From NCBI GenBank assembly GCA_037134355.1, contig JBAXMJ010000005.1, positions 1 to 53,581 on the forward strand: a DNA stretch of 53,581 bases, in the 5' to 3' direction. Below are positions 6,511 to 43,154 of this stretch, in pieces. The notes below the pieces were generated by a model. That model made no database searches, was not told the origin of the DNA, and was given only the letters and a program-made list of their open reading frames with translations. Each line of letters opens with the position of its first letter. Position 1 is the stretch's first letter. The DNA is from a bacterium (GTDB lineage Bacteria > Verrucomicrobiota > Kiritimatiellia > CAIKKV01 > CAITUY01). Made by a program: the position numbers and the translations under genes.

Positions 6511-7434
6511 CTAGTGGGAATCGATCCCCCAGAGCATCGTGAGACTGTGATCGAGCGTGGGCAGGATCTCGGCAAGATACTCTTCGACGGCCTTGACGCT
6601 GCCGGGGAGTGTGTAGACCAGGGCCGTCCCCATCACTCCGGCAATACTGCGGCTCAACAGGGCACTCGGAAAAGTCTGGCCGTATTTCATCCGGATGAAG
6701 TCCATGATGCCGGGGATTTCTTTGTCCAGCATCGGACGGACCGTGTCGGGCGTGATGTCCCGGGGGCCGATGCCGGTCCCCCCCGTAGTGAAAACAAGAT
6801 CCATCTTATCGGCCATACACGCCTTGAGTTCCCGGCGCAGTCCCGCCACATCATCGGGCAACAGCCTCGAGGTCACGTCGATACGCCACCGGCTGGCGGC
6901 AAAATGACGGCGAAGCGCCCCGTCAATGGCCGGACCGCTTCGGTCGGTGTAGTCGCCACGGCTGGCCCGATCACTCAAGGTGATGATCCGAACCCGCAGG
7001 TGGCCGGGACTGTGTTCCATCGTGTCGCCGGGACGGATTTCGCCGCTCTGAATGACGCGCGCAAACAGGCCCTGCTTAGGCATGATGCAGGATCCGACTT
7101 CCTTAAAAATGGCACAGCCGTCGCCGTGACACTTCTTGCCAATCTGAGTCACTTCCAACTCAACCGCCCCGATCCGGAGGCGATCTCGCAGGCAGACCTG
7201 CTCCAGATCAATACCGCTGGTGGTGATGTTTTCGGCAAACTCGCCGGGATGAAAGACACGTCCAGCCTTTTCACCAAGCCGAGCCATGCTCTCCTGGGCT
7301 AGAAGGCTGATCTGACGGTGCCAGTCCCCGCTATGGGCATCACACGAAATCCCAGTACTGTTAACCGTAGCCACTGCAACGGGATGTTTGGCTACACCCT
7401 TGGCATCCGAAATGTTGACCGATACAACCTTCAT
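6511..7434 (-). CDS. MOSC domain-MogA/MoaB fusion (Moco biosynthesis)
   Basis: N-terminal DAH...HRQISLL..E, FAENI, QIGKKCH; C-terminal ITLSDRAS.G...DRSG, TTGGTG.GPRDITPD, TLPGS. Confidence 0.9.
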   Translation of the reverse strand: MKVVSVNISDAKGVAKHPVAVATVNSTGISCDAHSGDWHRQISLLAQESMARLGEKAGRVFHPGEFAENITTSGIDLEQVCLRDRLRIGAVELEVTQIGKKCHGDGCAIFKEVGSCIMPKQGLFARVIQSGEIRPGDTMEHSPGHLRVRIITLSDRASRGDYTDRSGPAIDGALRRHFAASRWRIDVTSRLLPDDVAGLRRELKACMADKMDLVFTTGGTGIGPRDITPDTVRPMLDKEIPGIMDFIRMKYGQTFPSALLSRSIAGVMGTALVYTLPGSVKAVEEYLAEILPTLDHSLTMLWGIDSH

Positions 7435-7916
7435 GCACCCCCCACAGGAGTCTTAATCTTCTCGACCAGACGAATGTCCGTCAGCGTCATCGTCTTGTCC
7501 ACCGCCTTGCACATGTCGTAGACCGTCAGCAGCGCGACAGACACAGCGGTCAACGCCTCCATCTCAACCCCCGTCCGATCCGTGCATTTGACTTCGCTCG
7601 TAACGGCAACCCCGTCACGCCGCAAGGTAGCCGTCACGGCCACCTTTGTGAGCGGAACCATATGGCAGAGGGGAATCAGGTTCGCCGTCTGCTTCGCGGC
7701 CTGGATGCCGGCCAGTTCGGCTGTCACCAGGACGTTGCCCTTGGCAATGGTGCTGGCACGGATCAGCCCCACCGTCGCGGGCTTCAGGGCAATCCAGCCG
7801 GAGGCGGTTGCCACACGGTGTGAAAGACCCTTTGGCGAAACATCCACCATCCGGGGCCGCTGCTGTTCATCGATATGGGTCAGTTTTTTCATTGTTATCT
7901 CCATCGACCGGGTCAT
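7431..7916 (-). CDS. moaC: Cyclic pyranopterin monophosphate synthase MoaC
   Basis: LTHID...RMVDVS.K, KGNVL..A.LAGIQAAK.T..LIPLCH, TGVEMEALT, YDMCKAVD. Confidence 0.97.
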   Translation of the reverse strand: MTRSMEITMKKLTHIDEQQRPRMVDVSPKGLSHRVATASGWIALKPATVGLIRASTIAKGNVLVTAELAGIQAAKQTANLIPLCHMVPLTKVAVTATLRRDGVAVTSEVKCTDRTGVEMEALTAVSVALLTVYDMCKAVDKTMTLTDIRLVEKIKTPVGGA

Positions 7917-8710
7917 CCGCCCAGGGCATGAATCCCCATGTCGCTCCTGTTTCCGGCCTCGGGTTTGTTCTCCACGGCCAGCCGGAGCGCCGTCTCGATT
8001 CCGTGTTCACGGATGGAAAAGAAAGTATTATCAAATAGGCAGGGAAATATCCGCCCGTCGCTTGACACACGCAAGCGGCTGCAGATTTTGCAATGCCCGC
8101 CCTCACTCCCCGTGATAGGCCAGAACCGTCCGGTTTTCAAGTCCATCCGGCGAATGAAGCGCACCTCCAGGCCACTGTCCCGCGCATAATTGGCCACGCC
8201 CCGGGCATCGGACTCATCCGGCGAGTCCGTCACGACGCAGTTGAGTTTGACGGGTTGCAATCCAGCGCTCCTTGCCGCTTCGATGCCTGCGATGACCCGA
8301 CTGACATCGCCGCCCCCGGTGATATCACGGAAACGGGCGGGATCCATCGTGTCCAGGCTGATGTTGATTCTCTGCAGTCCCGCCTCACGCAGCGGCAGGG
8401 CATAATCACGCAGGAGTATGCCATTTGAAGTCATGCACAGGTCCTTGATTCCGGGAATTTCCGCCAGCATACGAACCAGATCCAGAATGCCGCGCCGCAC
8501 GAGCGGCTCGCCGCCAGTCAACCGGACTTTGGTGACGCCCATCCCGACGGCTACGGCAACCAGGGCGCGAATCTCCTCGAAGGACAGGATCTGATCCCGA
8601 CCGACAAAGGGGATTCCCTCTTCTGGCATACAGTATCCGCAACTCAGGTTGCAGCGATCCGTAACCGAGATGCGCAAATATTGAATTCGCCGGTTAAATC
8701 GGTCGAACAT
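7913..8710 (-). CDS. moaA: GTP 3',8-cyclase MoaA (compact, 265 aa)
   Basis: YLRISVTDRCNLSCGYC, RLTGGEPL, C..C.RLR...DG...PCLF, C-terminal GG. Confidence 0.93.
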   Translation of the reverse strand: MFDRFNRRIQYLRISVTDRCNLSCGYCMPEEGIPFVGRDQILSFEEIRALVAVAVGMGVTKVRLTGGEPLVRRGILDLVRMLAEIPGIKDLCMTSNGILLRDYALPLREAGLQRINISLDTMDPARFRDITGGGDVSRVIAGIEAARSAGLQPVKLNCVVTDSPDESDARGVANYARDSGLEVRFIRRMDLKTGRFWPITGSEGGHCKICSRLRVSSDGRIFPCLFDNTFFSIREHGIETALRLAVENKPEAGNRSDMGIHALGG

Positions 8711-11215: not shown

Positions 11216-11674
11216 TCAGAACACCTCGGGGTAACCGATATCAAGGAACAAGTCCTCGAGCGTGCTTTTGTGTCCGAGTTCCATGTTTACCAGGTTTTCA
11301 AAAAGGGTCAGCATATCAGGATCGGATGTGAATCCGGCCATGCTCCGGTAGAGGAACGCTGCCTGCTGTTCGTTTTTCATGGCCAGAGCAACGGCATCAC
11401 GTAGCGGCATGTCGGGCTTGAACTCCGGCAGCGGCTCGGACTCGGCGACGTGGTAATCGGCCATCGGCTTGAACTTGGCCTGCGTCAGGGGGCCCGTCTT
11501 CAGGGTTGATAGAAGGGCCTTGTGCTTCAATTCCTCTTTGGCAAGCGACTCGAAAATTTCCTTTACCGCTGGACTTTTCACCCGCCCGGCAAGGGCTGTG
11601 TAGAGTTTGTTCGCGGCAGTTTCCCGGCTGATGGCCAGGTCGAATATGGTATCGAGAGTGTGTTTTTCGCTCAT
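11216..11674 (-). CDS. Ferritin-like / rubrerythrin-family diiron protein
   Basis: Duplicated E...Y...ExxH helical motifs (EELKH, MELGH). Confidence 0.88.
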   Translation of the reverse strand: MSEKHTLDTIFDLAISRETAANKLYTALAGRVKSPAVKEIFESLAKEELKHKALLSTLKTGPLTQAKFKPMADYHVAESEPLPEFKPDMPLRDAVALAMKNEQQAAFLYRSMAGFTSDPDMLTLFENLVNMELGHKSTLEDLFLDIGYPEVF

Positions 11675-14403
11675 TAGGGCCTCGCTTGTCGTTGTACGGT
11701 TTGAATAAAGGGCACTCCGTCGGACACTTTTTCCACCTTAATCGCACACGCCTTGTATTCGGGCGTCTCGGTGACGTTGTCGTAGGCGCTATTGGTCAGC
11801 ACATTCGCATGGGCCTCATGGAAGTGGAAGGCGCACCAACAGACACCCTCGGGCGAACGGTCGGTCACCCACGCCTTGAGCGTGATGGTTCCGCGACGGC
11901 TTGTGGCCTTAACCACATCGTGGGTCTTAATCCCCATCCGCGCTGCATCCACCGGGCTGATTTCAAGTAACTCCTCGGGGAAAATGGTTTCAAGTCCGAC
12001 CGAGTTCCGGGTCTGCGTCCCGGTATGATAATGCCACAACCGTCGCCCCGTACTCAGCATGAAGGGATATTCGGCATCGGGCACTTCGGCAGGCGGCCGG
12101 TTATCGGTCCTGCAGAATAAGCCCTTGCCCCGCGTGAATTTTCCGTGCAAGTGAAGGATCGGCGTTCCCGGGTGATCCGTTGTCGGGCACGGCCATTGAA
12201 GCCCGAGCTCCTCAATACGTTCATAGGTGATTCCGGCCATGCTGGTGGCGGTCCTGCGCATATCCTCCCAGGTCGCCTCGGCCGAGGTGAAGCGCAGGTC
12301 AACGCCCATCCGCTTGCCCAGTTCCTGCATGATCCACCAGGTGGGTTTGGCCTGACCGGGCGGATTGACGGCCTTGCGAAGGCGTTGCACCCGGCGCTCC
12401 ATGTTGGAGTAGCAGCCGTCATCCTCGTTGAAACACACGTCCGGGAGCACGACATCAGCCATCTCGGTGGTCAGATTCGGGAAGATATCCACCACCACGA
12501 AAAATTCCAGTGCCTTGATCTCCTTGATGGTTTTATTCATGTCCGGCTCGGTTTGGACCGTATTGTCGCCCACGCAGAACAGAATCTTGGTCTCGCCGGT
12601 CGTCGCCTTGTGCATCATGGTGGGAATCTTGTACCCCGGCTTGATCGGAAGCCCGCTTACGCCCCAGCACTGGGCCATCTTCGCGGCCACCTTCGGGTCT
12701 TCCACCGGCTGATACGTATGATACACATTGGGCAACGCGCCCATATCGCAGGCTCCCTGCACGTTATTCTGCCCGCGTAACGGGTTCACGCCGCCACCAC
12801 GCTTACCCAGGTGGCCCAACACCATCTGCAGGTTGGCGATGGTCTTCACGTTGTCGGTGCCGCAGGTGTGCTCCGTGATGCCGAGACAGTAGATGATATT
12901 GACGTTCTTCGCCGTGCCCAGGATCCGGGCGATGGTCTTCATGGTGTCAACGGGAACGCCGCAAATCTCTGAGGCCTTTTCGACCGGATACGGCTTGACC
13001 CACTCCCGAATATCATCGGGATTCTCAGTATTGGCGCGCATAAACGCCTCGTTCTGCCATCCGTTTTTGAAAATCTCATTAATAATGCCGTTCAGAAAGA
13101 CCACATCCGTGCCTACACGCTGCTGCGCATAGAGCGAAGCCCAGCGCACCAGGTCGATTTTCCGGGGATCCACCACAATCAGGGTGGCGCCATTCTTGGC
13201 GGCACGCTTGACATAATACGAAACGACCGGGTGCGCTTCCGTCATGTTGGAGCCAATTACAAAGAGGACATCGGCTTCCAGAATATCGGCAATGGAATTG
13301 GTCGCCGCACCGCTGCCAAAGGCGGCGGCAAGACCCGCTACCGTGGGGGCATGGCAGGTGCGGGCGCAATGATCCACGTTATTGGTCTTGATGACCGCCC
13401 GGGTGAATTTCGCCACGGCGTAATTGTTCTCGTTTGTGATACGCCCGGACCCCAGGGCGGAAAAGACATCGGGGCCGTGCTTGTCGACAATGGCCTTGAT
13501 GCGCCCGGCGGTGTAATCAAGCGCCTCGTCCCAGCTTACCGGAACCAGTTTGCCATCCTTCCGGACCAGAGGGTGGGTCAGGCGTTTGGGGCTGGCGTGG
13601 AACTCAAAGCCGTACCGGCCCTTTACGCAGAGCATTCCGTTGTTGGGCGCGATGTCCCGGCCCGTGACGCGAACCACACGGTTACTGGCGCGGTCCACAT
13701 GCAGGGTGATCTGGCACCCTACTCCACAATACGGACAGGTGGTGTTTACTTTGTCGAGCTGCCAGCTGCGGCCTTTGCCCACGGTCTTCTTATCAACCAG
13801 GGCACCGGTGGGGCACAATTGGACGCACTCGCCACACTGCACACAACTCGACTTGCCCATGGGAAGATCGTCGTCGCAGATGACCTTGGTGTCGTGACCC
13901 CTGAATCCAAAATCCAGCACCTCATTGCAAACGACCTGCGTGCACCCGGCAATACAGCGGCCACACTTGATACATTTCGCGTTGTCACGGGTGACGAACT
14001 CAGCGCTATCGTCAATGTCTACTGCAGGTTCCACAGTAAACGAAGGTCGTTCAATACCCAGTTCATAGGCGGCATTCTGCAGTTCGCAATCGCTGTTTTT
14101 CTCGCAGGCGAGGCAATCATGCCGACCCGAGGCCAGCAGCAGGTCAACGACCAGACGCCGGGCAGAGCGGATGGCATCGGAATCAGTCTTTACGACGAGG
14201 CCGTCCTTTACTTCAACCGTGCAGGACGTCTGCAGGCCACGCATGCCTTCCACCTCAACGAGGCAGAGTCGGCACTTTCCGGCGGGGCCGGTATGGGCGT
14301 GGTAGCACAAGGTGGGGATGTGGATGCCGTGTTGACGCGCCGCCTGAAGGAGGGTCTGGCCCGTCTGCACCTCAAGAATCCGGCCATTCATGGTAATCTT
14401 CAT
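11674..14403 (-). CDS. fdhA: Formate dehydrogenase alpha subunit (Mo/W-bis-PGD, Cys-type) with NuoG-like N-terminal FeS domains; true start 14403
   Basis: IPTLC..CRLC, H.CLACE...CELQ, two CxxCxxC, TTCPYCGVGC, CVKGR, DHCARTCHAPT (TGC = Cys), LRGQNNVQGACDMG, PEYKACA. ATGA overlap with the upstream gene. Confidence 0.95.
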   Translation of the reverse strand: MKITMNGRILEVQTGQTLLQAARQHGIHIPTLCYHAHTGPAGKCRLCLVEVEGMRGLQTSCTVEVKDGLVVKTDSDAIRSARRLVVDLLLASGRHDCLACEKNSDCELQNAAYELGIERPSFTVEPAVDIDDSAEFVTRDNAKCIKCGRCIAGCTQVVCNEVLDFGFRGHDTKVICDDDLPMGKSSCVQCGECVQLCPTGALVDKKTVGKGRSWQLDKVNTTCPYCGVGCQITLHVDRASNRVVRVTGRDIAPNNGMLCVKGRYGFEFHASPKRLTHPLVRKDGKLVPVSWDEALDYTAGRIKAIVDKHGPDVFSALGSGRITNENNYAVAKFTRAVIKTNNVDHCARTCHAPTVAGLAAAFGSGAATNSIADILEADVLFVIGSNMTEAHPVVSYYVKRAAKNGATLIVVDPRKIDLVRWASLYAQQRVGTDVVFLNGIINEIFKNGWQNEAFMRANTENPDDIREWVKPYPVEKASEICGVPVDTMKTIARILGTAKNVNIIYCLGITEHTCGTDNVKTIANLQMVLGHLGKRGGGVNPLRGQNNVQGACDMGALPNVYHTYQPVEDPKVAAKMAQCWGVSGLPIKPGYKIPTMMHKATTGETKILFCVGDNTVQTEPDMNKTIKEIKALEFFVVVDIFPNLTTEMADVVLPDVCFNEDDGCYSNMERRVQRLRKAVNPPGQAKPTWWIMQELGKRMGVDLRFTSAEATWEDMRRTATSMAGITYERIEELGLQWPCPTTDHPGTPILHLHGKFTRGKGLFCRTDNRPPAEVPDAEYPFMLSTGRRLWHYHTGTQTRNSVGLETIFPEELLEISPVDAARMGIKTHDVVKATSRRGTITLKAWVTDRSPEGVCWCAFHFHEAHANVLTNSAYDNVTETPEYKACAIKVEKVSDGVPFIQTVQRQARP

Positions 14404-16268
14404 TTTGTTTTTCCGTTCCGGCGCACGGCCTTGAACTTGCACACGTTGTAGCAGGTCCCGCAACGGGTGCAGACTTTCTGATCGATGACATGGATTCCCT
14501 TGGCCACACCGGCAATGCAGGCCACCGGGCAGCGGCGGGCGCACGCGGTGCACCCCACGCAGGCCTCGGCGTCGATGTCGTAGGTCACCAGCTTGGTGCA
14601 TTTCCCTGCAGGGCATTTCTTATCCAGGATATGAGCTTTATACTCATCCATAAAATGGCGGAGAGTTGACAGAACAGGATTGGCGGCAGTTTGTCCCAGT
14701 CCGCACAGGGAAGTACTCTTGATTGAATTGCCCAGCGTGGAGAGGCGTTCCAGATCGGCCATTTCCCCCTGCCCGTTGCAAATGCGGGTGAGAATTTCCA
14801 ACATGCGCCGGGTTCCCTCACGGCAGGGAACACATTTACCGCAGGATTCCTCCCGAACGAAATCTACGAAAAACCGAGCCACATCCACCATGCAGGCATC
14901 CTCGTCAATCACGATGAGTCCACCTGATCCCATGATGGCGCCGAGTTCATTGAGCGATTCGTAATCCAGAGGGACTTTCAGGTATTCGGCAGGAATACAC
15001 CCGCCTGAGGGCCCGCCAATCTGCGCCGCCTTGAAGGACTTGCCATCCTTGATTCCGCCGGCGATATCAAAGACCACGTCGTTCAGCGGGGTTCCAACCG
15101 GGACCTCCACCAATCCCGAGATGTTGACTGCCCCGGCCAGGGCAAACACCTTGGTTCCCTTGCTTTTGGCTGTGCCGTAAGACGCAAAGGCGTCGCCCCC
15201 GTTGAGGATGATGAAGGGAATATTGGCAAAGGTTTCCACATTGTTCAGGACAGTGGGCTTCTTCCATAGCCCCTTCTGGGCGGGGAACGGGGGGCGTGGC
15301 CGGGGTTCCCCTCGCCTGCCCTCGATCGAGGCCATCAGGGCGGTCTCCTCCCCGCACACGAAGGCGCCGGATCCCTTGCGGATTTCCAAGTCAAAGGCGT
15401 AACCGGACCCGAGAATATTCTGCCCTAGCAGTCCCGCCTCACGCGCCATTTCGATGGCACGCTGCAATCGTTCGACGGCGAGGGGATATTCAGCGCGAAC
15501 ATACACATACCCCTGAGAAGAACCGATGGCGAATCCGCCAATGAGCATCCCTTCAATCACACTGTGCGGATCACCTTCCAGGACGCTGCGATCCATGAAG
15601 GCGCCCGGATCCCCCTCGTCAGCGTTGCACAGCACGTACTTCACGTCGCCGGGGCTTTGGCGGGCTGCCGCCCACTTGATATGGGTGGGGAACCCCGCGC
15701 CGCCGCGGCCGCGAAGCCCTGATTTTTTGACCTCCTCGATGACGGCGTCAGGCGTCATCGAGGTGAGCATCTTAGACAGGGCCTGATAGCCATTACGACC
15801 GATGGTGTCGTCAAGACTGTTCGGATCAACAATCCCACAGTTACGCAGGACGATTTTGGTTTGCCGCTTGAAAAAGGGAATGTCGCTTTGAACCGGGACG
15901 GATTTCTGCTTGGGCCCTTCTTTCCACGTCAGGCGTTCAACAATCTCGCCCTTGAGGAGGTGTTTTTCGACGATCTCGGCAGCATCGGTCACGGCCACGT
16001 GCTGGTAATAGACATTGTCCCGGCCCATCAACAGAATCGGCCCACCTGAACAAGGCCCCATGCACCCCGTTTCAACAATGGATACGGTCTTGTCGAGTTT
16101 GTGTTTCTTGAGTTCCGCCAGCAGGGCCGTTTTGACGGCCATGGCGCCCGAGGCAATACAGCCTCCGCCAGCGCACATGAAAATTTTATCTTTCGTTTCG
16201 GTATTGATGCATGCGCGCCGGGCGTCTAGGTCGGCGGCTGTGGCGAGTACCTTGGGGGTCTTTTTCAT
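14400..16268 (-). CDS. HydB/HylB/NuoF-like NADH-FMN subunit with N-terminal thioredoxin-like [2Fe-2S] and C-terminal 2x[4Fe-4S] domains
   Basis: SGLRGRGGAGFP, NADEGDPGAFMDR, GAFVCGEETAL, GGPSGG, ESCGKC.PCREG, C-terminal CVGCTACARRCP and CTRCGTCYNVC. Confidence 0.95.
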   Translation of the reverse strand: MKKTPKVLATAADLDARRACINTETKDKIFMCAGGGCIASGAMAVKTALLAELKKHKLDKTVSIVETGCMGPCSGGPILLMGRDNVYYQHVAVTDAAEIVEKHLLKGEIVERLTWKEGPKQKSVPVQSDIPFFKRQTKIVLRNCGIVDPNSLDDTIGRNGYQALSKMLTSMTPDAVIEEVKKSGLRGRGGAGFPTHIKWAAARQSPGDVKYVLCNADEGDPGAFMDRSVLEGDPHSVIEGMLIGGFAIGSSQGYVYVRAEYPLAVERLQRAIEMAREAGLLGQNILGSGYAFDLEIRKGSGAFVCGEETALMASIEGRRGEPRPRPPFPAQKGLWKKPTVLNNVETFANIPFIILNGGDAFASYGTAKSKGTKVFALAGAVNISGLVEVPVGTPLNDVVFDIAGGIKDGKSFKAAQIGGPSGGCIPAEYLKVPLDYESLNELGAIMGSGGLIVIDEDACMVDVARFFVDFVREESCGKCVPCREGTRRMLEILTRICNGQGEMADLERLSTLGNSIKSTSLCGLGQTAANPVLSTLRHFMDEYKAHILDKKCPAGKCTKLVTYDIDAEACVGCTACARRCPVACIAGVAKGIHVIDQKVCTRCGTCYNVCKFKAVRRNGKTK

Positions 16269-16783
16269 GCCGTCGGTTTCCTGTACTGGGCCAGAATGTC
16301 CTTGATTTGCCCGGGTTGCACGAATTGGTGGACATCGTCATTAACCATCACAGCCGGGGCCAGTCCGCAGGCACCAAAGCAGCGCCCCACATCCAGCGAG
16401 AAAACGCGGTCGGGTGTCGTCTGGCCCACTGAAATTTTCAGTTCCTGCTCCAGAGCCGCGAGAACGGCCTGACCGCCACGCACATAACACGCTGTGCCCA
16501 TACACACCCTGATCACATATTTGCCGCGAGGGACTTGAGAGAAAAATGAATAGAAGGTGACCACGCCGAAGACCCGGCTATAGGGCTCATTCAGGCCTTC
16601 ACTGATCGTCCGCAAAACGTCCTTGGGCAGGTAGCCGAAGAGAGCCTGGGCGATCTGGAGCACGGGAATGAGCGCGCCCGGTTTGTGCTGATACTCCTCG
16701 ATCACCTGCGCGAGCCGCGCGTGGTTGTCGGCATCCGACGCCGCCATGCCTCCGCAGGTGCATTTTTTTTCAGTCTTAACCAT
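16265..16783 (-). CDS. HydC/HylC/NuoE-like [2Fe-2S] subunit
   Basis: VTFYSFF, VCMGTACYVRG, CFGACGLAP. Confidence 0.95.
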   Translation of the reverse strand: MVKTEKKCTCGGMAASDADNHARLAQVIEEYQHKPGALIPVLQIAQALFGYLPKDVLRTISEGLNEPYSRVFGVVTFYSFFSQVPRGKYVIRVCMGTACYVRGGQAVLAALEQELKISVGQTTPDRVFSLDVGRCFGACGLAPAVMVNDDVHQFVQPGQIKDILAQYRKPTA

Positions 16784-16856
16784 GACATTACCTCGCCGCT
16801 TTCTGAATCAGAAAAGAAGCCTCGCACACTACCACTATGTGGTATCCTCGTCAACT

Positions 16857-17903
16857 TCACGCCCCCTGGGCAAGAAAACAATCGCGCACATCCCGCAACA
16901 GAGCAAAAACGCGTCCGGCCTCAAGTGGGCTTAAACTCCCGGTGCCACACGACGGGGTAAGCATGGCGCGATCCAGTAGAAGTTCGCGCGAAAATCCTTT
17001 CCGGATCATCGCCTCGAAACATCCTTCAAGGCGTTGCACCAAAGTTTCCAGCGTCTCCTTGCCAAGCGCAGCGGTCGTCGGGATAATTCCCCAGGCAATG
17101 CTCCCTCCCCTGTCAAATAAAGCCCTGATATCGTCCGCATACAGGGAGATACTGGTGCCATACTGGTAGGCGTCAAAATTGATGACCTGGACACCACTGC
17201 GCACAATGACACCCCAGTCGCTGTTCCCGCAGACATGAATGGCCGTGATGCCCCCTGCCCCGGTAATCGCCTCAAATACTTCACCCAACATCGCCTGAAC
17301 CTCCGGCTCGGAGAGGTAGATGTACGTACTGCTGCCAAATGCCGAGAGTACAGGCTCATCGACGAACATGAGTACACGGTCTGAGGCGAAGGGCTTGAGG
17401 CGACCGATCTGCCATTGCACCTTGCGCACTATCGTCTTCACGACCGCGTCACGCAGGTCGGGATCCGCGAAAAGCGGATTGTCCTGCTCATCATAAATGC
17501 TGGTGCATAAGGTAACCGGGCCTGTGGTTTGCCCCTTAACCACGGGCCATTGCTTTCCGTGAGCCATGCGCTCAAAGGCATACAATCCGGAAGCGATGTC
17601 CTGTGACAGGGCAAAGTGCGAGGGATCCTCCTCCATGAACCGATGATAAAACGCCTCGACTTCCTCCATTCTCCCGGTCATGTCCAGAAAGATCTTTTTA
17701 CGATCGGCATCAATCCGGACACACGGCAAGCCCTTGCTGTCCTGGGGAATCATTTCCTCTCCAAAACACCGTTTGGGTATCTGAGGCCAGAATGGAATAC
17801 TTAAATCCGCCCCAAGCAGGAACGAAACAGCCTCCTTGCTGTCTGTGAAGGGCACGCTACCAATGCCTGTTGTGGACAGGCGTGGACTAAAGTCAAAATC
17901 CAT
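16857..17903 (-). CDS. Core (single-barrel) cobalamin-independent methionine synthase-like protein (MesB-like)
   Basis: TGIGS.P, PFWPQ.P, KGQ.TGP.T, FVDEP; Zn-ligand motifs IHVCG and LTPSCG.G. Confidence 0.75.
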   Translation of the reverse strand: MDFDFSPRLSTTGIGSVPFTDSKEAVSFLLGADLSIPFWPQIPKRCFGEEMIPQDSKGLPCVRIDADRKKIFLDMTGRMEEVEAFYHRFMEEDPSHFALSQDIASGLYAFERMAHGKQWPVVKGQTTGPVTLCTSIYDEQDNPLFADPDLRDAVVKTIVRKVQWQIGRLKPFASDRVLMFVDEPVLSAFGSSTYIYLSEPEVQAMLGEVFEAITGAGGITAIHVCGNSDWGVIVRSGVQVINFDAYQYGTSISLYADDIRALFDRGGSIAWGIIPTTAALGKETLETLVQRLEGCFEAMIRKGFSRELLLDRAMLTPSCGTGSLSPLEAGRVFALLRDVRDCFLAQGA

Positions 17904-17973
17904 AAATAGATCCTTTTTTGATATTCAGAACAATATCTATCGAGCCCTTATTTTTCAAACTATTCATACAGAT

Positions 17974-18720
17974 TCATCTTGCAAAGAGGAGTTTAAACCC
18001 TGCCACGGTAAGAACGACTGCCAGTAACCGCTTGATAAGAACTGGCGAGAACTTTCTGCTACCGAAGTATGATCCTGCCGTACCGCAAACCAAGGCAGTG
18101 GCGACAAACGACCATGCGAAGGCTGGGAAGTATTTTGTGGCATTGAGGTTCCCTGCGAGTCCCGAAATGGAGTTTGCAAGGATGAACAACGCGGAAACGG
18201 CGGATGCCGTCTTTGTACTCGCCCATCCCATCAGGAGAACGAGGGGGGTGAGGAATATCCCTCCTCCGGTTCCCGTACAGCCTGCCAGAAGGCCCAATCC
18301 CGCTCCAACGCCACAGGATACAGGCTTCGATGGCGGCCGAATATAAGACTTCTCTTTCGGGTCTATGACGAACTTCAGGGCTGAGAGTATTAGCACCACA
18401 CCCACCAACATCTTGAACAGGTGAGCGGGGAGGTTGAGGTAGCCACCTAAGAAGGCAAAAGGAATCGACAAGACGGCAAACGGCCAGAACAGACGCCAAG
18501 AGAAGTGCCCCGCTCTCCAAAATTGCCATGATCCGATGCACGCCACCATAATATTCAAGACTAACGCAGTGGGCTTAATCGCGTCGGGTGCCATGCTGAA
18601 CAGTGTCATAACCGCGATATATCCGGACGCGCCTGCATGTCCCACAGCTGAATACAGGAACGCCACTATACCAATGCATACGGTCATGCAAACGAGATGC
18701 TCTGGAGTCATGGCATTCAT
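17974..18720 (-). CDS. TSUP (TauE/SafE) family membrane transporter
   Basis: AVGHAGASGY, G.TGTGGGIFL.P; about eight hydrophobic segments. Confidence 0.9.
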   Translation of the reverse strand: MNAMTPEHLVCMTVCIGIVAFLYSAVGHAGASGYIAVMTLFSMAPDAIKPTALVLNIMVACIGSWQFWRAGHFSWRLFWPFAVLSIPFAFLGGYLNLPAHLFKMLVGVVLILSALKFVIDPKEKSYIRPPSKPVSCGVGAGLGLLAGCTGTGGGIFLTPLVLLMGWASTKTASAVSALFILANSISGLAGNLNATKYFPAFAWSFVATALVCGTAGSYFGSRKFSPVLIKRLLAVVLTVAGFKLLFAR

Positions 18721-19028
18721 TCCTTCTCGCGTTCATTCAGAAGAAAGCGATCAAGCTGATGCTCTTCCCTCATTGCGTGAACAATATAAACCGTTTTCCC
18801 GTCAAACCGATAGAAGATCCGGCATGGAGGCACAACAATTTCCCTGTACGGGGTTTCGGGTAATTCCCGTGGCTTCTTTCCGGAATGAGGGAATCGCTCA
18901 AGCCGGCCTACACTTTCAATAACCTTCTGAACCCATCGGCCTGCCGCCATAGGATTATCCATCGCAATGTAGCCTGCAAGGTCATCAAGATCGTCCAAAG
19001 CTGGTTCGGTCCAGATCAGGCGAGCCAC
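18717..19028 (-). CDS. RelE/ParE family toxin
   Basis: LIWTEPALDDL..L..YIA.DNP, LERFP.SG, YREI...PCRIFYR. Confidence 0.9.
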   Translation of the reverse strand: MARLIWTEPALDDLDDLAGYIAMDNPMAAGRWVQKVIESVGRLERFPHSGKKPRELPETPYREIVVPPCRIFYRFDGKTVYIVHAMREEHQLDRFLLNEREKE

Positions 19029-19273
19029 TTTGAGAGCCTCCGCTTGGCTTCGTCGTGGGACACCGTTCTTTTCTCCAGGATTGCGCGTTCCCCCTGCGCA
19101 ATGCCCTCGAGGATTTTCATTCGGCCCTGCATCATCTCAAACATCGAAACATCAACGAGATAAGCAGAAGGAGCGCCGTGCTCTGTAATCAGAACAGGGA
19201 TGCCTGAATCATGTAAATCAGCAAGGATTCTGGTTGCTTGCCGCTTTAGCGTAGTCACGAGTTCTGTTTTCAT
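19016..19273 (-). CDS. Phd/YefM family antitoxin
   Basis: VTTLKRQAT, PVLITEHG.PSAYLVDV; overlaps the toxin gene. Confidence 0.9.
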   Translation of the reverse strand: MKTELVTTLKRQATRILADLHDSGIPVLITEHGAPSAYLVDVSMFEMMQGRMKILEGIAQGERAILEKRTVSHDEAKRRLSKWLA

Positions 19274-27558: not shown

Positions 27559-27562
27559 CACC

Positions 27563-30600: not shown

Positions 30601-32380
30601 GCTCTGGATCCATCCTTCCGTAATCCTTCTGGTAGGCGCACTACTGGTTCCGTTTGTCCGTGGCAAGGCGCGAAACGCCTTGTTGCTCGGGATTCCGCTG
30701 CTGGCCTTTGCGCGTATTGCTAGCCTTGCCCACGGAACCTTCGGCACGGTTCAGTTCCTGGACTTGACGCTGACCTTCGGGCGAGTGGACAGACTGAGCC
30801 AGGTGTTCGGCTACATCATGGGGCTCATGTGCGTCCTGGGCAGCCTTTACGGAATGCACGTCAAACGGGCCGCCGACCATTCAGCCGCCTGGTGTTATGT
30901 GGCCGGTTCGCTGGGCGTGATCTATGCGGGAGATTACCTGGTCCTGTTCCTGTTCTGGGAGCTGATGGCGTTTTCCTCGGTCTTCCTGATCTGGTTGCGG
31001 GGAAGCAAAACCTCCCAGGGAACGGGTTATCGCTACCTGATGGTTCACGTGGTGGGCGGACTCTGCCTTTTGGGTGGCATTATTCTCCGGTATCAGGCAA
31101 CTGGCGGAGACTATTCCTTCGGATTAGTTGATGTGGCCCATCCGGATCTCTCCACCTGGCTGATCCTCATCGGGTTTCTCCTGAACGCCGCCGTGCCGCC
31201 CTTCCATGGATGGTTGCCGGATGCCTACAGCGGAGCCACAGTCACCGGCTCGGTATTTCTTTGCGCCTTCACGACCAAAACGGCCATCTATGCCCTGTGC
31301 CGCGGGTTTGCCGGAATGGAAATTCTCCTGCCTCTCGGGGTCATCATGGCCATCTACGGCGTGGTCTACGCCGTGCTGGAAAACGATTCACGAAAACTTC
31401 TCGCCTATCACATCATCAGCCAGGTCGGCTACATGGTGGCAGGGGTCGGCATCGGAACCCAAATGGCCATCAACGGGGCCTGCGCCCATGCCTTCGCGCA
31501 CATTCTTTACAAAGGTCTGCTCTTCATGGGAACAGGTTCCGTGCTGATGATGACCGGGAAGAGCAAGTTCACCGAGCTGGGCGGCCTTTACAAAAAAATG
31601 CCCTGGGCCTTTGCCTTCACCCTGATCGGCGGCTTATCCATCTCGGCCTTCCCGCTCTTCAGCGGATTCGTCAGCAAATCCATGATCGTGTCGGCGGGAT
31701 TTGAGGAACACAAAAACACGTGGGCATTCCTGTTGATGCTCGCCTCGGCGGGAACGTTCCTCCATACCGGACTGAAGGTGCCGTACTTCATCTGGTTCGG
31801 GAAGAACAACTGCAGCAAGGAAACCTGGGATCTTGCGAAGGATCCCCCGTGGAATATGATCGCAGCCATGGCGATCATGTCCTTCTTCTGCATTTTCATC
31901 GGCTGCTATACGCCCTATCTTTACCAGATGCTGCCCAATCAGCCGGTGGATTATCATCCCTATACGGCCTACCATGTTTCCGAAACGCTCCAGATCCTGC
32001 TCTTCACCGCCGTGGGCTTTTTCCTGTTTGTGAAGAAACTGGTCCCCACCCCCACCATCAGCCTGGATGTGGACTGGCTCTATCGCATGAGCGGACGGGC
32101 AGTCCGATGGATCGCCACCAAGCCGCTGCAGGCGGTTGATACCTGGGTGAGTGAAGGGTACCGCGTCTTCGGCCTGGTCTGGCTGGTCATATCGGCCAAG
32201 GCGTCCGCCGCATTCGACTGGAATGTGATTGATGGCGTGGTGGACGGCCTGGCCCGAACGGTACGAAGTTCCGGCGACCGCATCCGGCATCTTCAGACAG
32301 CGCAATTGCAGGTCAATCTATTCAGCGCCGTGGCCATGATGGTCGTGCTGTTAATCTTCGTGATGGTCAGCTTGAGGTAA
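30587..32380 (+). CDS. Antiporter-like subunit 2 (MrpD-like core) with a NuoL-like C-terminal lateral helix
   Basis: LNAAVPP.HGWLPDAY, FTTKT, LAYHIISQVGYM; tail D..VIDGVVDG......G..IR.LQT..LQ followed by one TM segment. Confidence 0.88.
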   Translation: MAMSELWIHPSVILLVGALLVPFVRGKARNALLLGIPLLAFARIASLAHGTFGTVQFLDLTLTFGRVDRLSQVFGYIMGLMCVLGSLYGMHVKRAADHSAAWCYVAGSLGVIYAGDYLVLFLFWELMAFSSVFLIWLRGSKTSQGTGYRYLMVHVVGGLCLLGGIILRYQATGGDYSFGLVDVAHPDLSTWLILIGFLLNAAVPPFHGWLPDAYSGATVTGSVFLCAFTTKTAIYALCRGFAGMEILLPLGVIMAIYGVVYAVLENDSRKLLAYHIISQVGYMVAGVGIGTQMAINGACAHAFAHILYKGLLFMGTGSVLMMTGKSKFTELGGLYKKMPWAFAFTLIGGLSISAFPLFSGFVSKSMIVSAGFEEHKNTWAFLLMLASAGTFLHTGLKVPYFIWFGKNNCSKETWDLAKDPPWNMIAAMAIMSFFCIFIGCYTPYLYQMLPNQPVDYHPYTAYHVSETLQILLFTAVGFFLFVKKLVPTPTISLDVDWLYRMSGRAVRWIATKPLQAVDTWVSEGYRVFGLVWLVISAKASAAFDWNVIDGVVDGLARTVRSSGDRIRHLQTAQLQVNLFSAVAMMVVLLIFVMVSLR

Positions 32381-35323: not shown

Positions 35324-35398
35324 CAGCACATCTCATCGAATCCCGAACCCTATAGGGGATTGTTGCGTTACCGGTCCGAACGACGTACTATTCCTGCT

Positions 35399-36889
35399 AT
35401 GGAACGTGCCGATGCCGAACTGATGTGCGAACTCCTGCCCACCCGGCCCCAACCGGAAATCGGCAAAGTCCTGGTCACGGGGGCAACCGGCTACATCGGT
35501 GGGCAACTGGTTCCTGCGCTCCTCACCCGGGGTTACTCGGTTCGCATCATGGTTCGCGCCCCCTCCCCTGAACTCGCCCATCGCTGGAAAAACACCGAGA
35601 TTGTTGTCGCGGATGCACAGAACCTCGACCAGGTTGAGATGGCGATGGAGGGCATTGATACGGCGTATTTTCTGATCCATTCGCTTCTGCTCGGTCCGGA
35701 AAAACTCGAACGCGTTGAAATCAAGGTGGCGGAGAATTTTCGTACCGCTGCCGCAAACAAAGGAGTCCGCCGCCTTATCTATCTGGGAGGACTCGGCGAT
35801 GAACAGGGCGGACACTCCACGCACCTCCGAAGCCGGATGGCCGTGGGAGCGGCACTGCAACAGGGCCCGGTGCCCGTCACCATACTGAGGGCCGCCATCA
35901 TCATTGGCGCCGGCAGCGCGTCCTATGAGATTCTCCACAATCTGGTCAGGAAATTGCCGATCATTCCCATTCCTTCCTGGGCTCGCACCCGATGCCAACC
36001 CATCAGTATCCATGATGTCATCCTGCTCCTGGTCGGCGTTCTTGAGACGCCGGAGACCGTTGGACATTCCTTCGATATCGGGGGCCCCGACATCCTCAGC
36101 TACGAGGATATGATCCGGTCGATGGCCGCCATTCTTGGGCGGAGACGCTGGTTTCCCATTTCTCCGCCCTTGCCCATCAAACTTACATCGTACGTTATCA
36201 GTCTGCTGACACCGGTACCCCTCGCCATCACCTGGTGCCTGATGGAGGGCGTCGTCAACGAGGTGGTTTGTCGTAAGAATCGCATACTGGAGCTGATTCC
36301 CTTCACTCCGATGACGTACCGGAACGCCGTCATGATGGCCATGACGCGGGAAGAACAGGATCGGATTCATACGCGTTGGTCAGACGCCTATCCGCCGGCC
36401 TGGGAACTGGCGATTAAACTGAACGAGCTCGGTACCGCTCCCCGCTACACCACGGAGTATTCCCTCAAGACAGCCAAAAGCCCGACCGTCCTCTTTGAAT
36501 CCATCTGCCGGATCGGGGGCGATGAGGGGTGGTTCAATTCAAACTGGCTCTGGCGGCTCAGAGGGTTACTGGACCGGATGCTCATGGGGGTCGGAACCTC
36601 CCGTGGCCGCCGGAACCAGACTCAACTGCGGATTAATGATGTGGTCGATTTCTGGCGGGTGGAACAACTCCAGCCCGATGCGATGCTGCTCCTGCGTGCG
36701 GAAATGAAATTACCCGGTCTGGCCTGGTTACGATTCACGATTGAACCGGGCGATCACGGGAACCGCCTCGGGGTCAAGGCATTCTTCCACACCGACCGAG
36801 TTTGGGGGAAACTCTACTGGTATGCGTGTCTTCCGTTCCATCATTTCATTTTTAATGATTTGATCCTGCAGATCGAAAAACGCAGTTAA
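35399..36889 (+). CDS. Atypical SDR / NAD(P)-binding oxidoreductase with C-terminal DUF2867-like domain
   Basis: VLVTGATGYIG, IYLGGLG, HL.SR, G.GS.S.E; C-terminal GG..GW...WLW.LRG..D, DFWRVE, AEMKLPG.AWL. Confidence 0.88.
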   Translation: MERADAELMCELLPTRPQPEIGKVLVTGATGYIGGQLVPALLTRGYSVRIMVRAPSPELAHRWKNTEIVVADAQNLDQVEMAMEGIDTAYFLIHSLLLGPEKLERVEIKVAENFRTAAANKGVRRLIYLGGLGDEQGGHSTHLRSRMAVGAALQQGPVPVTILRAAIIIGAGSASYEILHNLVRKLPIIPIPSWARTRCQPISIHDVILLLVGVLETPETVGHSFDIGGPDILSYEDMIRSMAAILGRRRWFPISPPLPIKLTSYVISLLTPVPLAITWCLMEGVVNEVVCRKNRILELIPFTPMTYRNAVMMAMTREEQDRIHTRWSDAYPPAWELAIKLNELGTAPRYTTEYSLKTAKSPTVLFESICRIGGDEGWFNSNWLWRLRGLLDRMLMGVGTSRGRRNQTQLRINDVVDFWRVEQLQPDAMLLLRAEMKLPGLAWLRFTIEPGDHGNRLGVKAFFHTDRVWGKLYWYACLPFHHFIFNDLILQIEKRS

Positions 36890-36893: not shown

Positions 36894-37814
36894 TCACCCG
36901 GCGGAAGCCGTCAATCCCGCGGAGAAGCCCTTCACGAATTTATCGATCGAGGGGGAAAACTCCTGCTTCATAAATTCACGCCAGGCCGCCTGTACCGGCG
37001 GGAATCCCTCGAGAAGTGCATCGGCCTTTGCGCACAGTTCCCCGATATAGACCACTGGGTCCGCCGGGGCTCCGGCACGGTCGAATTTCCATCCCGATGC
37101 CGCCGTAACCTTGGGTTTTAAGGCGTCACGTCCAAGCGACTTGTCCGAAGACGCCTGATCACCATACCCGTCAAACAAATCATCTGCCAACTGGTAGGCC
37201 GTCCCGGCCAGATAGCCGCATTCCCGCAAAATGGGGCCCAGTTCAGGCGATTGGCTTCCCGCCAGATATCCGACAAAGGCGAATAGCGATCCGGTTTTCC
37301 GCCGGGCAAGAGAGACGGAAAGCGGCCAGTCTGGCGTTTCGCGCCGGACCAGCTCCTGCTCGACTTCAGCCTCACACATTTCCCTGGAGCGATTGACGAA
37401 CTCGGGAATCAACTCGCGTGATTCTGATTTCATAATCAGGGAGAACGCCAGGCACACCATCAAGTCGCCAACCAGAACGGACCCGGAGGTTCCACGACTG
37501 ATCCAGAACGCGGGCGAGCCCCGTCGCATGTCGGCCCCGTCAATCACATCATCGTGAAGCAGGCTGGCCGCATGCAGCATTTCGATAGCGGCCGCCCCGC
37601 ACGTAAGAGTCTGACGGGGAACGCCCGCTGCAGTGCCGATCCGTAATGCTAACCGGCTTCGAAGCATTTTCCCCCCGTAAAGGGAGCCGGACACCTGATT
37701 GAGCAAGGGCTTGAGGCTTGTTCCCTCCAATACATCCCGGATCGTCTCTTTTACATCGGCAACATATTGTTCAACATCCACAGCCATTTCCTTCGTTAAA
37801 GTTCGAGCGTGCAC
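36894..37814 (-). CDS. Polyprenyl diphosphate synthase family protein
   Basis: GKMLR, EMLH.ASLLHDDVID...RRG, KTGSLF, YQLADD..D. Confidence 0.92.
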   Translation of the reverse strand: MHARTLTKEMAVDVEQYVADVKETIRDVLEGTSLKPLLNQVSGSLYGGKMLRSRLALRIGTAAGVPRQTLTCGAAAIEMLHAASLLHDDVIDGADMRRGSPAFWISRGTSGSVLVGDLMVCLAFSLIMKSESRELIPEFVNRSREMCEAEVEQELVRRETPDWPLSVSLARRKTGSLFAFVGYLAGSQSPELGPILRECGYLAGTAYQLADDLFDGYGDQASSDKSLGRDALKPKVTAASGWKFDRAGAPADPVVYIGELCAKADALLEGFPPVQAAWREFMKQEFSPSIDKFVKGFSAGLTASAG

Positions 37815-37841
37815 CGTGTCACTTTCCTCACACGGGCGGGG

Positions 37842-37870
37842 ATTATAGTCAGCCCCCCTCTTCTGCGCAA
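37842..37870 (-). promoter_or_regulatory. Sigma70 promoter of the polyprenyl synthase gene
   Basis: TTGCGC-17 bp-TATAAT on the minus strand. Confidence 0.65.
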
Positions 37871-40834: not shown

Positions 40835-40846
40835 GAAAGGCCAACC

Positions 40847-41768: not shown

Positions 41769-42847
41769 TTCGTCGCAATACTATTCCCTTTGGCCCCCAG
41801 CACCCGGTTCTTCCGGAGCCCATCCAGCTCCATCTGGTGATGGAAAACGAAAAGATCATTCAAGCACTCCCTGCGGTTGGGTATATCCACCGTGGACTCG
41901 AAAAAATCGCCGAGAAGAAAGACTACATTCAGGACGTCTATCTGGCGGAGCGCATTTGCGGGATCTGCAGTTTCATGCATTCCCAGAACTACTGTCAGGG
42001 TATTGAGGAACTGATGAAGGTTCAGATTCCCGACCGCGCCAAGTACCTGCGCGTGATCTGGGCCGAAACGCATCGTATTCACAGTCATTTGCTTATCCTC
42101 GGCCTGCTGGCCGATGCGTTCGGGTTTGAGAACCTGTTTATGCGCCTCTGGAAGGTGCGTGAACAGATCCTCAATATCATGGAAAAAACAACGGGGGCAC
42201 GCGTCATCCTTGGCGTCTGCGCTATCGGCGGCGTCAAGCGCGACATTACCCCAGAACTGAGCGATTATATCCTGCGCGAACTGGAAGCCGTTGAGAAACA
42301 GCTTCCCGAGCTGATGGATTCCCTGCTCAAGGACTATAGCGTTAAACAGCGCCTGATCGGCGTTGGCGTCCTCCCGAAGGATAAAGCCCACGAACTGGGC
42401 GCGGTGGGGCCTGTAGCTCGCGCCAGCGGTCTGAGAATGGATCTCCGTGAGACCGGTTACGCCGCCTATGGCGATCTGGACTTCAAAATGGTGGTCGGGG
42501 AGGCGGGCGACTGCTATGACCGAACCATGGTTCGGGTGAAGGAGCTTTACACCTCGCTCGACCTGATCCGCACCGCCCTCAAGCGCATGCCCCAGGGGCC
42601 GATCTCAGTCGCGGTCAAGGGAAGCCCCCCCGCCGACGAGGTACTCGCCCGGATCGAACAGCCGCGTGGCGAATTGAACTTCTATATTCGTGGAAATGGA
42701 ACGCGGAATCTGGAACGCTTCCGGGTCCGGACCCCGACTTTCGCCAATCTCCCGGCCCTGCTACACCAGCTGACAGGCTGCGAGCTGGCGGACGTCCCGG
42801 TGATTGCCATTTGTATTGACCCCTGCATCAGCTGTACGGAGCGATAA
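41765..42847 (+). CDS. echE: Ech [NiFe]-hydrogenase large subunit E (group 4e)
   Basis: PFGPQHPVLPEP, ERICGICS, DPCISCTER-stop; no cleavable C-terminal extension. Confidence 0.96.
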   Translation: MIRRNTIPFGPQHPVLPEPIQLHLVMENEKIIQALPAVGYIHRGLEKIAEKKDYIQDVYLAERICGICSFMHSQNYCQGIEELMKVQIPDRAKYLRVIWAETHRIHSHLLILGLLADAFGFENLFMRLWKVREQILNIMEKTTGARVILGVCAIGGVKRDITPELSDYILRELEAVEKQLPELMDSLLKDYSVKQRLIGVGVLPKDKAHELGAVGPVARASGLRMDLRETGYAAYGDLDFKMVVGEAGDCYDRTMVRVKELYTSLDLIRTALKRMPQGPISVAVKGSPPADEVLARIEQPRGELNFYIRGNGTRNLERFRVRTPTFANLPALLHQLTGCELADVPVIAICIDPCISCTER

Positions 42848-42851
42848 AATT

Positions 42852-43154
42852 ATGGTTAACCTCATCAATAGTATTTTCCGGAAACTTACGACTCCCACAG
42901 AGTGCCTTCGCTATCCCTTCGTGAAACGGGAGTTGCCCGAAGGAACGCGCGGCCGGATCGACATCGAGATCGACAAGTGCACCTTCTGCGGAGCCTGCGA
43001 GAAGCGGTGCCCGTCAAATGCGCTTAAGGTGACCCGCGATCCCAAGTCGTGGACCTTGAACCCCTACTCCTGCATCATCTGCGGGTATTGCATCGAAGTG
43101 TGCCCCAAGAAGTGCATCATCGCGCACAAGGAACACTACTCACCGAACGTGTGA
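42852..43154 (+). CDS. echF: Ech hydrogenase 2x[4Fe-4S] subunit F (start 42852)
   Basis: YPF..R....TRG, CTFCGACEKRCP, CIICGYCIEVCPK. Confidence 0.93.
   Translation: MVNLINSIFRKLTTPTECLRYPFVKRELPEGTRGRIDIEIDKCTFCGACEKRCPSNALKVTRDPKSWTLNPYSCIICGYCIEVCPKKCIIAHKEHYSPNV

Follow-up and report, generated by a model that had tools for sequence, protein, structure and literature searches.

A bifurcating-type formate dehydrogenase, a headless complex I with two MrpD-like subunits, and an Ech hydrogenase encoded side by side in an uncultured bacterium: a probable native juxtaposition of separate transcription units

The contig JBAXMJ010000005.1 (assembly GCA_037134355.1), from an uncultured bacterium of the Planctomycetes–Verrucomicrobia–Chlamydiae (PVC) group, carries genes for a formate dehydrogenase (FDH), a complex I (nuo) operon, and an Ech hydrogenase within 37 kb. 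Do these genes form one functional unit, or are they merely neighbors? A first-pass annotation had interpreted the 37 kb as a single ferredoxin-centered formate/H2/quinone hub that was acquired laterally, as a block, beside polysaccharide genes. Here, we analyzed the whole stretch of 53,581 nucleotides, hereafter the window, and our view of the genome is that of this 53.6-kb window. The results indicate that the region is probably a native, lineage-specific juxtaposition of three known low-potential energy modules, each in its own transcription unit or units.

The window contains 184 open reading frames (ORFs) of at least 80 amino acids (aa), 57 of which (24 + 33 candidates) were compared with Pfam and 37 of those also with NCBIfam. 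These comparisons, together with cysteine motifs, showed that the gene list and module identities in the first-pass annotation were correct. The three neighboring modules are a Bfu-type FDH with genes for molybdenum cofactor (Moco) synthesis, a 13-gene nuo/Mrp operon, and echABCDEF. On the minus strand, a run from 23945 to 6511 comprises heme genes, a Phd/ParE toxin–antitoxin pair, a TauE/TSUP transporter, a gene for a 348-aa protein, the genes for HydC, HydB, and FdhA, a rubrerythrin-like gene, and the Moco genes. The plus strand carries, in this order, nuoABCDHIJK, MrpD1, an 85-aa ORF referred to as s85, MrpD2, nuoM, nuoN, and a gene combining a short-chain dehydrogenase/reductase (SDR) domain with DUF2867; then come a minus-strand polyprenyl synthase gene and echABCDEF. 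The s85 ORF, the SDR-DUF2867 gene, the rubrerythrin-like gene, and a MobB-like part of MobA had been overlooked in the first pass. Gene orientations alone give at least four transcription units in the 37-kb span, and a single transcript covering nuo and ech is impossible because a minus-strand gene sits between them. Scanning positions 33800–44400 for promoters and terminators gave 6 promoter-like sites (5.5 expected) and 19 terminator-like sites (10.5 expected, SD 3.0), none of which lies at an informative boundary.

Linkage of the modules was assessed in relatives of the nuo operon. A genome scan with MrpD2 as query and one genome per species confirmed 572 relatives, from which 80 loci were kept, and each ORF in these 80 nuo loci was assigned to its best-matching window protein. 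Downstream of nuoN, 48 loci extend for at least 3 kb and 42 for at least 5 kb; upstream of nuoA, the corresponding numbers are 52 for at least 1.5 kb and 38 for at least 3 kb. The search for co-located nuo, ech, and fdh genes that the first-pass annotation had proposed as a check thus covered 80 loci, in which ech is never adjacent and the FDH operon is adjacent in a single locus, L009. An Ech subunit was the best match of no ORF in any locus, and this includes the 42 that extend for 5 kb or more past nuoN; the distance from nuoN to echA in the window is 2.7 kb. Genes for HemX, HemA, AhbC/D, the TSUP transporter, and the 348-aa protein were also found in no locus (0/38 with at least 3 kb before nuoA). 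The same FDH operon adjoins nuoA in one of the 52 loci with at least 1.5 kb upstream. In this locus (L009), FdhA is 83% identical (over the visible 225 aa), HydB 85%, and HydC 77%, and the operon is divergent from nuoA at a distance of about 240 nucleotides (nt). FDH and nuoA abut in L009, whereas the heme/toxin–antitoxin/TSUP segment parts them in the window.

These counts bear directly on the idea of a single hub. In its favor, all three modules plausibly use ferredoxin, all lie within 37 kb, and L009 repeats the placement of the FDH operon beside nuoA. Against it stand the lack of ech beside nuo in 42 relatives and of the heme genes upstream in 38, the four or more transcription units, and a palindromic putative operator (described below) that is found only before hydC. 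The sequence offers no sign that the three are bound together as one regulated or conserved unit, and the single ferredoxin-centered cluster is not supported.

The proposed lateral acquisition of the block fared no better. The closest relative with flanks is L003, where nuoN directly adjoins a bioB-like gene that is 63% identical to that at 43255–44259 in the window. Relative to L003, the 7.8-kb SDR/prenyl synthase/ech segment is an insertion in the window or a deletion in L003; no direct repeats were found flanking this segment, and there is hence no insertion signature. The GC content at third codon positions (GC3) is 0.66–0.73 in the modules, compared with 0.76 and 0.65 in the left and right flanks, and tetranucleotide correlations among modules and flanks range from 0.73 to 0.91. 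The only compositional outliers are the segment encoding the 348-aa protein, TSUP transporter, ParE, and Phd (GC3 0.59) and the last 5 kb, 48.5–53.6 kb (GC3 0.545).

A FastTree phylogeny was built from concatenated NuoD, MrpD1, MrpD2, and NuoM of the window and the 58 loci with all four proteins; 22 incomplete loci were left out. The window is sister to L003 (support 100), and both belong to a clade of nine (support 100) labeled Lentisphaerota, Kiritimatiellota, Verrucomicrobiota, or without a phylum label. The closest nuo relatives are metagenome-assembled genomes with these three phylum labels. This clade is sister to an Opitutae-type clade of 16, and the joint clade of 25 (support 100) includes one member labeled Chloroflexota. 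Since the tree nests the window in a PVC clade, the nuo operon looks inherited within the PVC group. The comparison of flank and cluster origin drew on three lines of evidence, namely the nuo phylogeny, the junction in L003, and base composition: the modules resemble their flanks, the nuo genes follow the PVC tree, and the nuoN/bioB-like junction is common to L003, so that lateral acquisition of the block is not supported. As a side observation, L072, a contig with the label Candidatus Limnocylindrales (Chloroflexota), is nested in the Verrucomicrobiota clade of the nuo tree, which reflects mis-binning or transfer.

The first of the three modules, the FDH operon, comprises the following features:

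16830..16844, no strand: perfect palindrome TACCAC-N3-GTGGTA in the 74-nt gap before hydC
16265..16783, minus strand: HydC/BfuC, a NuoE/HoxE-like 2Fe-2S subunit (Pfam PF01257, E 5.5e-50; NCBIfam)
14400..16268, minus strand: HydB/BfuB, 622 aa (Pfam, NCBIfam, alignment with 7t2r_B)
11674..14403, minus strand: FdhA/BfuA, a NuoG-like N-terminal part (2Fe-2S + 4Fe-4S) followed by a molybdopterin FDH (TIGR01591)
11216..11674, minus strand: rubrerythrin-like di-iron protein, 152 aa (Pfam PF02915, E 1.3e-16)

Pfam assigns to HydB an N-terminal thioredoxin-like 2Fe-2S domain, a flavin mononucleotide/NADH site, the NuoF 4Fe-4S domain, and a C-terminal 2x[4Fe-4S] domain. When compared with solved structures, HydB matched bifurcating B subunits with 694–827 bits. 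The best match was 7t2r_B (827 bits, residues 29–616), where the N-terminal, central, and C-terminal Cys motifs are all in register; other solved relatives are 7q4v_B, 8a6t_B, 7p5h_B, 8oh5_B, and 9n5u_B. Nonbifurcating FdsB chains scored 378–413 bits over a shorter core that ends at residue 543, and these bit scores rule out an Fds-type HydB. FdhA matches the FDH-alpha equivalog TIGR01591 with 762 bits (cutoff 666) and carries Cys at the selenocysteine position. Its start, most probably residue 72 of the ORF, overlaps the hydB stop, and it aligns near full length (residues 4–893) to the NuoG-fused FdsA chain 6tg9_A of solved NAD-dependent FDHs. The rubrerythrin-like protein has no rubredoxin domain, and its ORF shares a single base with the end of the fdhA ORF.

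The Bfu family is defined by extra clusters in BfuB plus the BfuC subunit (Schut et al. 2022; PMC9304861), and that paper lists 82 FDH-linked and 13 rubrerythrin-linked members. The window enzyme agrees with Fdh-Bfu in its BfuB with N-terminal 2Fe-2S and C-terminal 2x[4Fe-4S] domains, in the presence of BfuC, and in a BfuA fused to a pyranopterin FDH domain; it differs in the coupling of fdhA to a rubrerythrin-like gene. Because HydB shows the family-defining clusters and BfuC is present, the label “bifurcating-type FDH”, given in the first pass and borne out by the full-length HydB match, is well founded as a description of architecture. From this architecture, we infer that the enzyme would bifurcate electrons among formate, NAD, and ferredoxin. 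A formate hydrogenlyase (FHL), in which an FdhF-type FDH shares a locus with the group-4 hydrogenase and feeds it directly, does not fit, since the FDH is NuoG-fused, comes with HydB and HydC, and lies on the opposite strand, 21 kb from ech. The palindrome is a candidate operator of the FDH operon. It occurs nowhere else in the window as an exact match, the regions upstream of nuoA and echA included; L009 has two exact copies (3257–3271 and 3352–3366) in its hydC–nuoA gap, and the remaining 80 loci have none.

Downstream of the rubrerythrin-like gene lie the Moco genes:

9869–~11008 (ORF to 11086), minus strand: MobA fusion with a MobB-like P-loop N terminus (Pfam, NCBIfam, weak MobB match)
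8694–9872, minus strand: MoeA (Pfam, NCBIfam)
7913–8710, minus strand: MoaA, compact and ending in GG (Pfam, NCBIfam)
7431–7916, minus strand: MoaC (Pfam, NCBIfam)
6511–7434, minus strand: MOSC + MoaB-like protein (Pfam, NCBIfam)

The N-terminal 190 aa of the MobA fusion contain a P-loop-like motif and match MobB weakly (E 0.005); this part was also considered as a candidate FdhD, which it is not. MoaA, despite its compact size, retains both its C-terminal Cys motif and its GG end. Rfam at gathering thresholds gave no matches in the window, which therefore has no Moco riboswitch.

The nuo operon and the gene that follows it are as follows:

24104..28862, plus strand: nuoA, B, C, D, H, I, J, and K, with no nuoEFG between nuoD and nuoH (Pfam, NCBIfam)
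28868..30346, plus strand: MrpD1, 492 aa, antiporter-like, without C-terminal extension (NF006236, 809 bits, cutoff 663)
30343..30600, plus strand: s85, 85 aa, two hydrophobic stretches, overlapping both neighboring genes
30587..32380, plus strand: MrpD2, 597 aa (NF009310, 739 bits, cutoff 564)
32384–33880, plus strand: nuoM (Pfam, NCBIfam)
33899–35323, plus strand: nuoN (Pfam, NCBIfam)
35360..36889, plus strand: SDR/NmrA-like NAD(P)-binding domain + DUF2867, 37 nt after nuoN (Pfam)

In this operon of 13 genes, NuoL is replaced by MrpD1–s85–MrpD2 and nuoEFG is missing, in agreement with the earlier description of a headless Nuo with an Mrp-like pair. NuoD lacks the NiFe cysteines and NuoB has the tandem-Cys N2 motif in the translations, features that we take to mark a quinone-type Q module. 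The alignments of MrpD1 and MrpD2 both contain invariant Glu, Lys, and His columns, presumably the channel residues of antiporter-like subunits. MrpD2 combines an antiporter-like core with a NuoL-type C-terminal extension, that is, an amphipathic stretch and a last hydrophobic helix, to which the lateral-helix (HL) description in PMC9040806 applies. MrpD2 has more than 8000 scored homologues, with identity still at about 70% in Geobacteraceae, Opitutaceae, and Verrucomicrobiia; it has no close solved structure, the best PDB match scoring 134 bits.

All 13 genes are visible in 53 of the 80 kept loci, and nuoM follows MrpD2 in 69. The gap between nuoD and nuoH is at most 461 nt wherever both genes are seen (64/64), leaving no nuoEFG between them. 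In five loci (L043, L045, L055, L066, and L067), nuoM precedes MrpD1 and NuoA–K are much more divergent. In these Desulfocapsa-type loci, the MrpD1–s85–MrpD2 trio is about 68–72% identical, compared with only 28–59% for NuoA–K, and the trio seems to move as a cassette.

All 77 loci with both MrpD genes (77/77) also contain the s85 ORF, the alignment of which (65 rows) has 12 invariant columns. The s85 protein is 48% identical (E 6e-16) to an 84-aa “hypothetical protein” at the same place on pSymA of S. meliloti (L081, 8763–9017). No Pfam family matched s85, Atlas returned only hypothetical clusters, and the protein has no name in any family library. The protein is probably an unrecognized subunit of the complex I variant with the MrpD pair. 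A predicted complex of MrpD1 (residues 8–487), the MrpD2 core (8–446), and s85 (3–83), with 65-row alignments for each, scored 0.05 against a mark of 0.32, a result that weighs neither way.

The SDR-DUF2867 protein is NDUFA9-like by sequence. Its best PDB match is 9g83_P (E 1.2e-13), from entries that also hold bacterial NuoF, and most of its 21 PDB matches are NDUFA9 chains, with plant NDUFA9 at 1e-11; an unrelated monooxygenase, 5f5l, scores about equally (E 2.5e-13). A protein with the same SDR + DUF2867 architecture (43% identical) is encoded about 80–100 nt before the nuo operon in L070 (554–2092) and in no other of the 80 loci. Quinone-related neighbors recur in the relatives: a gene for electron-transfer flavoprotein–quinone oxidoreductase directly follows nuoN in L007, L012, and L018, and L007 and L018 carry a polyprenyl synthase gene (47–49% identical to that of the window) with a histidine kinase gene before nuoA. 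These neighbors fit a quinone-linked role of the nuo complex.

The window operon was compared with known complex I types. The rhizobial “green complex I” (PMC9040806; PMC7415380) corresponds to the S. meliloti pSymA record. There too, a pair of MrpD-like subunits, with a small hypothetical protein encoded between the two, substitutes for NuoL, and nuoM and nuoN come next; window MrpD2 is 50% identical to the pSymA gene over 99% of its length. The gene orders differ, being nuoJ-K-MrpD-hyp-MrpD-M-N-A-B-C-D-E-F-G in pSymA, with nuoEFG included, and A-B-C-D-H-I-J-K-D1-s85-D2-M-N in the window, without nuoEFG. As the MrpD–s85–MrpD trio is common to both and nuoEFG is not, we regard the window operon as a headless relative of green complex I in standard gene order. 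Headless NUO11-type complexes of sulfate reducers, green sulfur bacteria, and cyanobacteria share the absence of an NADH module from the operon and the quinone-type NuoD and NuoB. They contain L, M, and N rather than four antiporter-like subunits plus s85. No donor-binding subunit, such as an NdhS-like one for ferredoxin, was identified in the window. For headless complex I, a low-potential donor, for instance ferredoxin, has been proposed (PMC4287179; PMC4758237). The 2M complex I of Nitrospira and Complex_I_3 of “Ca. Manganitrophaceae” (PMC9040806) also have an extra pumping subunit, and there the additional pumps are associated with a wider redox span or with electron flow in reverse; theirs is a second NuoM with a 26-aa lateral-helix insertion, whereas the window encodes a single NuoM. 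A small, keyword-bound literature search found no paper on an MrpD-pair nuo operon beside ech or a Bfu-type FDH in PVC bacteria and no description of the headless MrpD-pair form, the 85-aa protein, or this neighborhood, which, given the size of the search, is no proof of absence.

The third module and the gene that separates it from the nuo operon are as follows:

36894..37814, minus strand: polyprenyl diphosphate synthase, convergent with the SDR gene and divergent from echA (Pfam, NCBIfam)
38058–39971, plus strand: echA (Pfam, NCBIfam)
39968–40834, plus strand: echB (Pfam, NCBIfam)
40847–41365, plus strand: echC, cysteines present (Pfam, NCBIfam)
~41373–41768, plus strand: echD (Pfam, NCBIfam)
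41765–42847, plus strand: echE, both NiFe Cys pairs intact (Pfam, NCBIfam)
42804–43154, plus strand: echF (Pfam, NCBIfam)

EchA–F measure 637, 288, 172, ~131, 360, and 116 aa and include one NuoL-like and one NuoH-like membrane subunit; we take these sizes to match those of a typical Ech. With both Cys pairs in EchE, the enzyme, which the first-pass annotation had called Ech, is a real [NiFe] enzyme as far as its sequence tells. Homologues of EchE at 81% identity carry the JGI name “ech hydrogenase subunit E”, and the closest solved chains in the PDB are those of the membrane-bound hydrogenase MBH (6cfw_L) and FHL (7z0s_E). Group 4e Ech, exemplified by the Thermoanaerobacter kivui enzyme (PMC9356269), shares the six genes in the order echABCDEF and the NiFe cysteines in EchE; in the same source, purified Ech interconverts reduced ferredoxin and H2 with ion translocation. 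The window ech differs in lacking nearby hyp or ferredoxin genes and in adjoining a complex I operon, an arrangement seen in none of the sampled relatives. Immediately downstream, at 43156–43254, between the convergent echF and bioB-like genes, lies an AT-rich hairpin with 35-nt arms (86% complementary) and TAATCN hexamer repeats, possibly a two-way terminator or a repeat element.

Each module is thus of a described kind, namely Fdh-Bfu, Ech, and a complex I with two MrpD-like subunits, and a division of labor can be proposed. The hydC-hydB-fdhA-rbr operon would encode a soluble Bfu-type FDH interconverting formate/CO2 with NAD(H) plus ferredoxin by flavin-based bifurcation or confurcation. 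The nuo complex, with a predicted quinone-type Q module, four antiporter-like subunits instead of three, and no NADH module in its operon, would most likely oxidize a low-potential donor such as reduced ferredoxin and reduce menaquinone; donor, acceptor, and stoichiometry are all predictions here, and the complex could also run backwards. EchABCDEF would act as a group-4 Ech [NiFe]-hydrogenase linking ferredoxin/H2 to an ion gradient. Ferredoxin is a plausible common currency of the three modules, which may well draw on one ferredoxin pool. Using potentials tabulated in PMC9304861 (ferredoxin −500 mV, menaquinone −74 mV, and NADH −280 mV), transfer of an electron pair to menaquinone yields about 82 kJ from ferredoxin and about 40 kJ from NADH, and the larger span from ferredoxin would pay for a fourth antiporter-like pump.

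Several observations weigh against the juxtaposition of native, separate modules that we favor. Neither ferredoxin nor hyp nor menaquinone genes were found within the window. At the level of the 57 ORFs compared with Pfam, no Hyp, FdhD, formate/nitrite transporter, or stand-alone ferredoxin family was matched, as the first-pass annotation had stated, and no ferredoxin-like ORF was found in the only large intergenic gap (47873–48497). The FDH operon lies near nuoA in both the window and L009, which are not sisters in the tree, and this proximity could reflect an old functional link rather than chance. Molybdopterin-enzyme or Bfu-like genes occur near other nuo operons as well: L033 has a Bfu-like HydC/HydB pair (~50%) 5 kb after nuoN, L016 has an FdhA-like gene (45%), and in L043, L055, and L066 the C terminus of a molybdopterin enzyme is encoded about 600–730 nt before nuoA. 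Upstream flanks reach only ~3.4 kb, so that an FDH operon as distant as that of the window (7 kb) would go unseen. MrpD2 identity between PVC and Thermodesulfobacteriota is 66–72%, as would suit an ancient interphylum exchange of the entire operon, and uniform composition does not exclude an old transfer. Finally, the homologous pSymA cluster has nuoE, F, and G after nuoD, so that NuoEFG from elsewhere in the genome could serve the window complex.

This last point leads to the alternative that survives best, that is, a nuo complex functioning as an NADH:quinone oxidoreductase with NuoEFG encoded elsewhere. We consider this unlikely: in all 64 loci where both nuoD and nuoH are seen, the gap between the two is too short for nuoEFG, NuoE/F-like ORFs appear in the flanks of L009 and L033 only, and PMC4287179 reports the same absence of nuoEFG in Desulfovibrio, citing the ferredoxin proposal. 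A bolder proposal is that the Bfu-type FDH is the dedicated input of the headless complex I, either docked or through a private ferredoxin, with the palindrome co-regulating both at a divergent promoter, as in L009, and with s85 as a structural element that lets the MrpD pair replace NuoL; we hold this combination to be very improbable. Docking of HydC-HydB-FdhA on NuoB/C/D/I in the manner of NuoEFG, giving a formate-driven, menaquinone-reducing pump, draws on the NuoG-like N-terminal domain of FdhA, the homology of HydB and HydC to NuoF and NuoE, the prediction of “Nuo-Bfu” enzymes with BfuABC in place of NuoEFG (PMC9304861), and the orthologous, divergent FDH operon of L009 with two palindromes in its gap. 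The adjacency is, however, confined to that one locus, the predicted Nuo-Bfu clusters have the Bfu genes inside the operon, which the window does not, and the closest solved relatives of HydB are soluble enzymes; docking is therefore hardly to be expected. The laterally acquired hub, with odd composition limited to the toxin–antitoxin/TSUP segment and the 48.5–53.6 kb end, deserves equally little credence.

Returning to the native juxtaposition of three modules, the remaining genes of the window concern the segment between FDH and nuoA and the two edges:

19455..23945, minus strand: heme genes encoding AhbD, AhbC, HemA, and a CcsA/HemX-like membrane protein (Pfam, NCBIfam)
16857..19273, minus strand: 348-aa MetE-like protein, TauE/TSUP transporter, ParE toxin, and Phd/YefM antitoxin (Pfam; Atlas)

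AhbC matches TIGR04546 with 692 bits (cutoff 650), and HemA likely starts at ~23103. The 348-aa protein had been labeled MetE-like; it has no match in Pfam, NCBIfam, or the PDB and lies beside “methionine synthase II (cobalamin-independent) family” clusters in Atlas (score 0.97). The label is therefore taken as a lead and not as a family assignment. The segment that the protein forms with TSUP, ParE, and Phd has a lower GC3 than its neighbors (0.59, compared with 0.66–0.76 elsewhere), is not present between hydC and nuoA in L009, and is possibly a later insertion. At the left edge (3–824), an open-ended ORF with a weak DDE transposase match (E 0.0013) lies beside fucosidase and GH95-like/DUF5703 genes. 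The low-GC right end (48498–53581) holds defense- or mobile-element-like genes, that is, radical SAM/DUF5131, SocA/Panacea, GIY-YIG + RAMA, and DUF429 proteins and three proteins of no family. ARAGORN found no tRNAs in the window, and there is none at this edge.

If the reading as a native juxtaposition is true, the window provides a further example of how anaerobic polysaccharide degraders in the PVC group balance their reductant, with a bifurcating FDH used alongside a ferredoxin-type complex I and an Ech. Beyond this organism, the complex I variant with an MrpD-like pair is widespread without nuoEFG, and it is always accompanied by the 85-aa protein. A cultured member would make the donor of this headless, extra-pump complex I testable.

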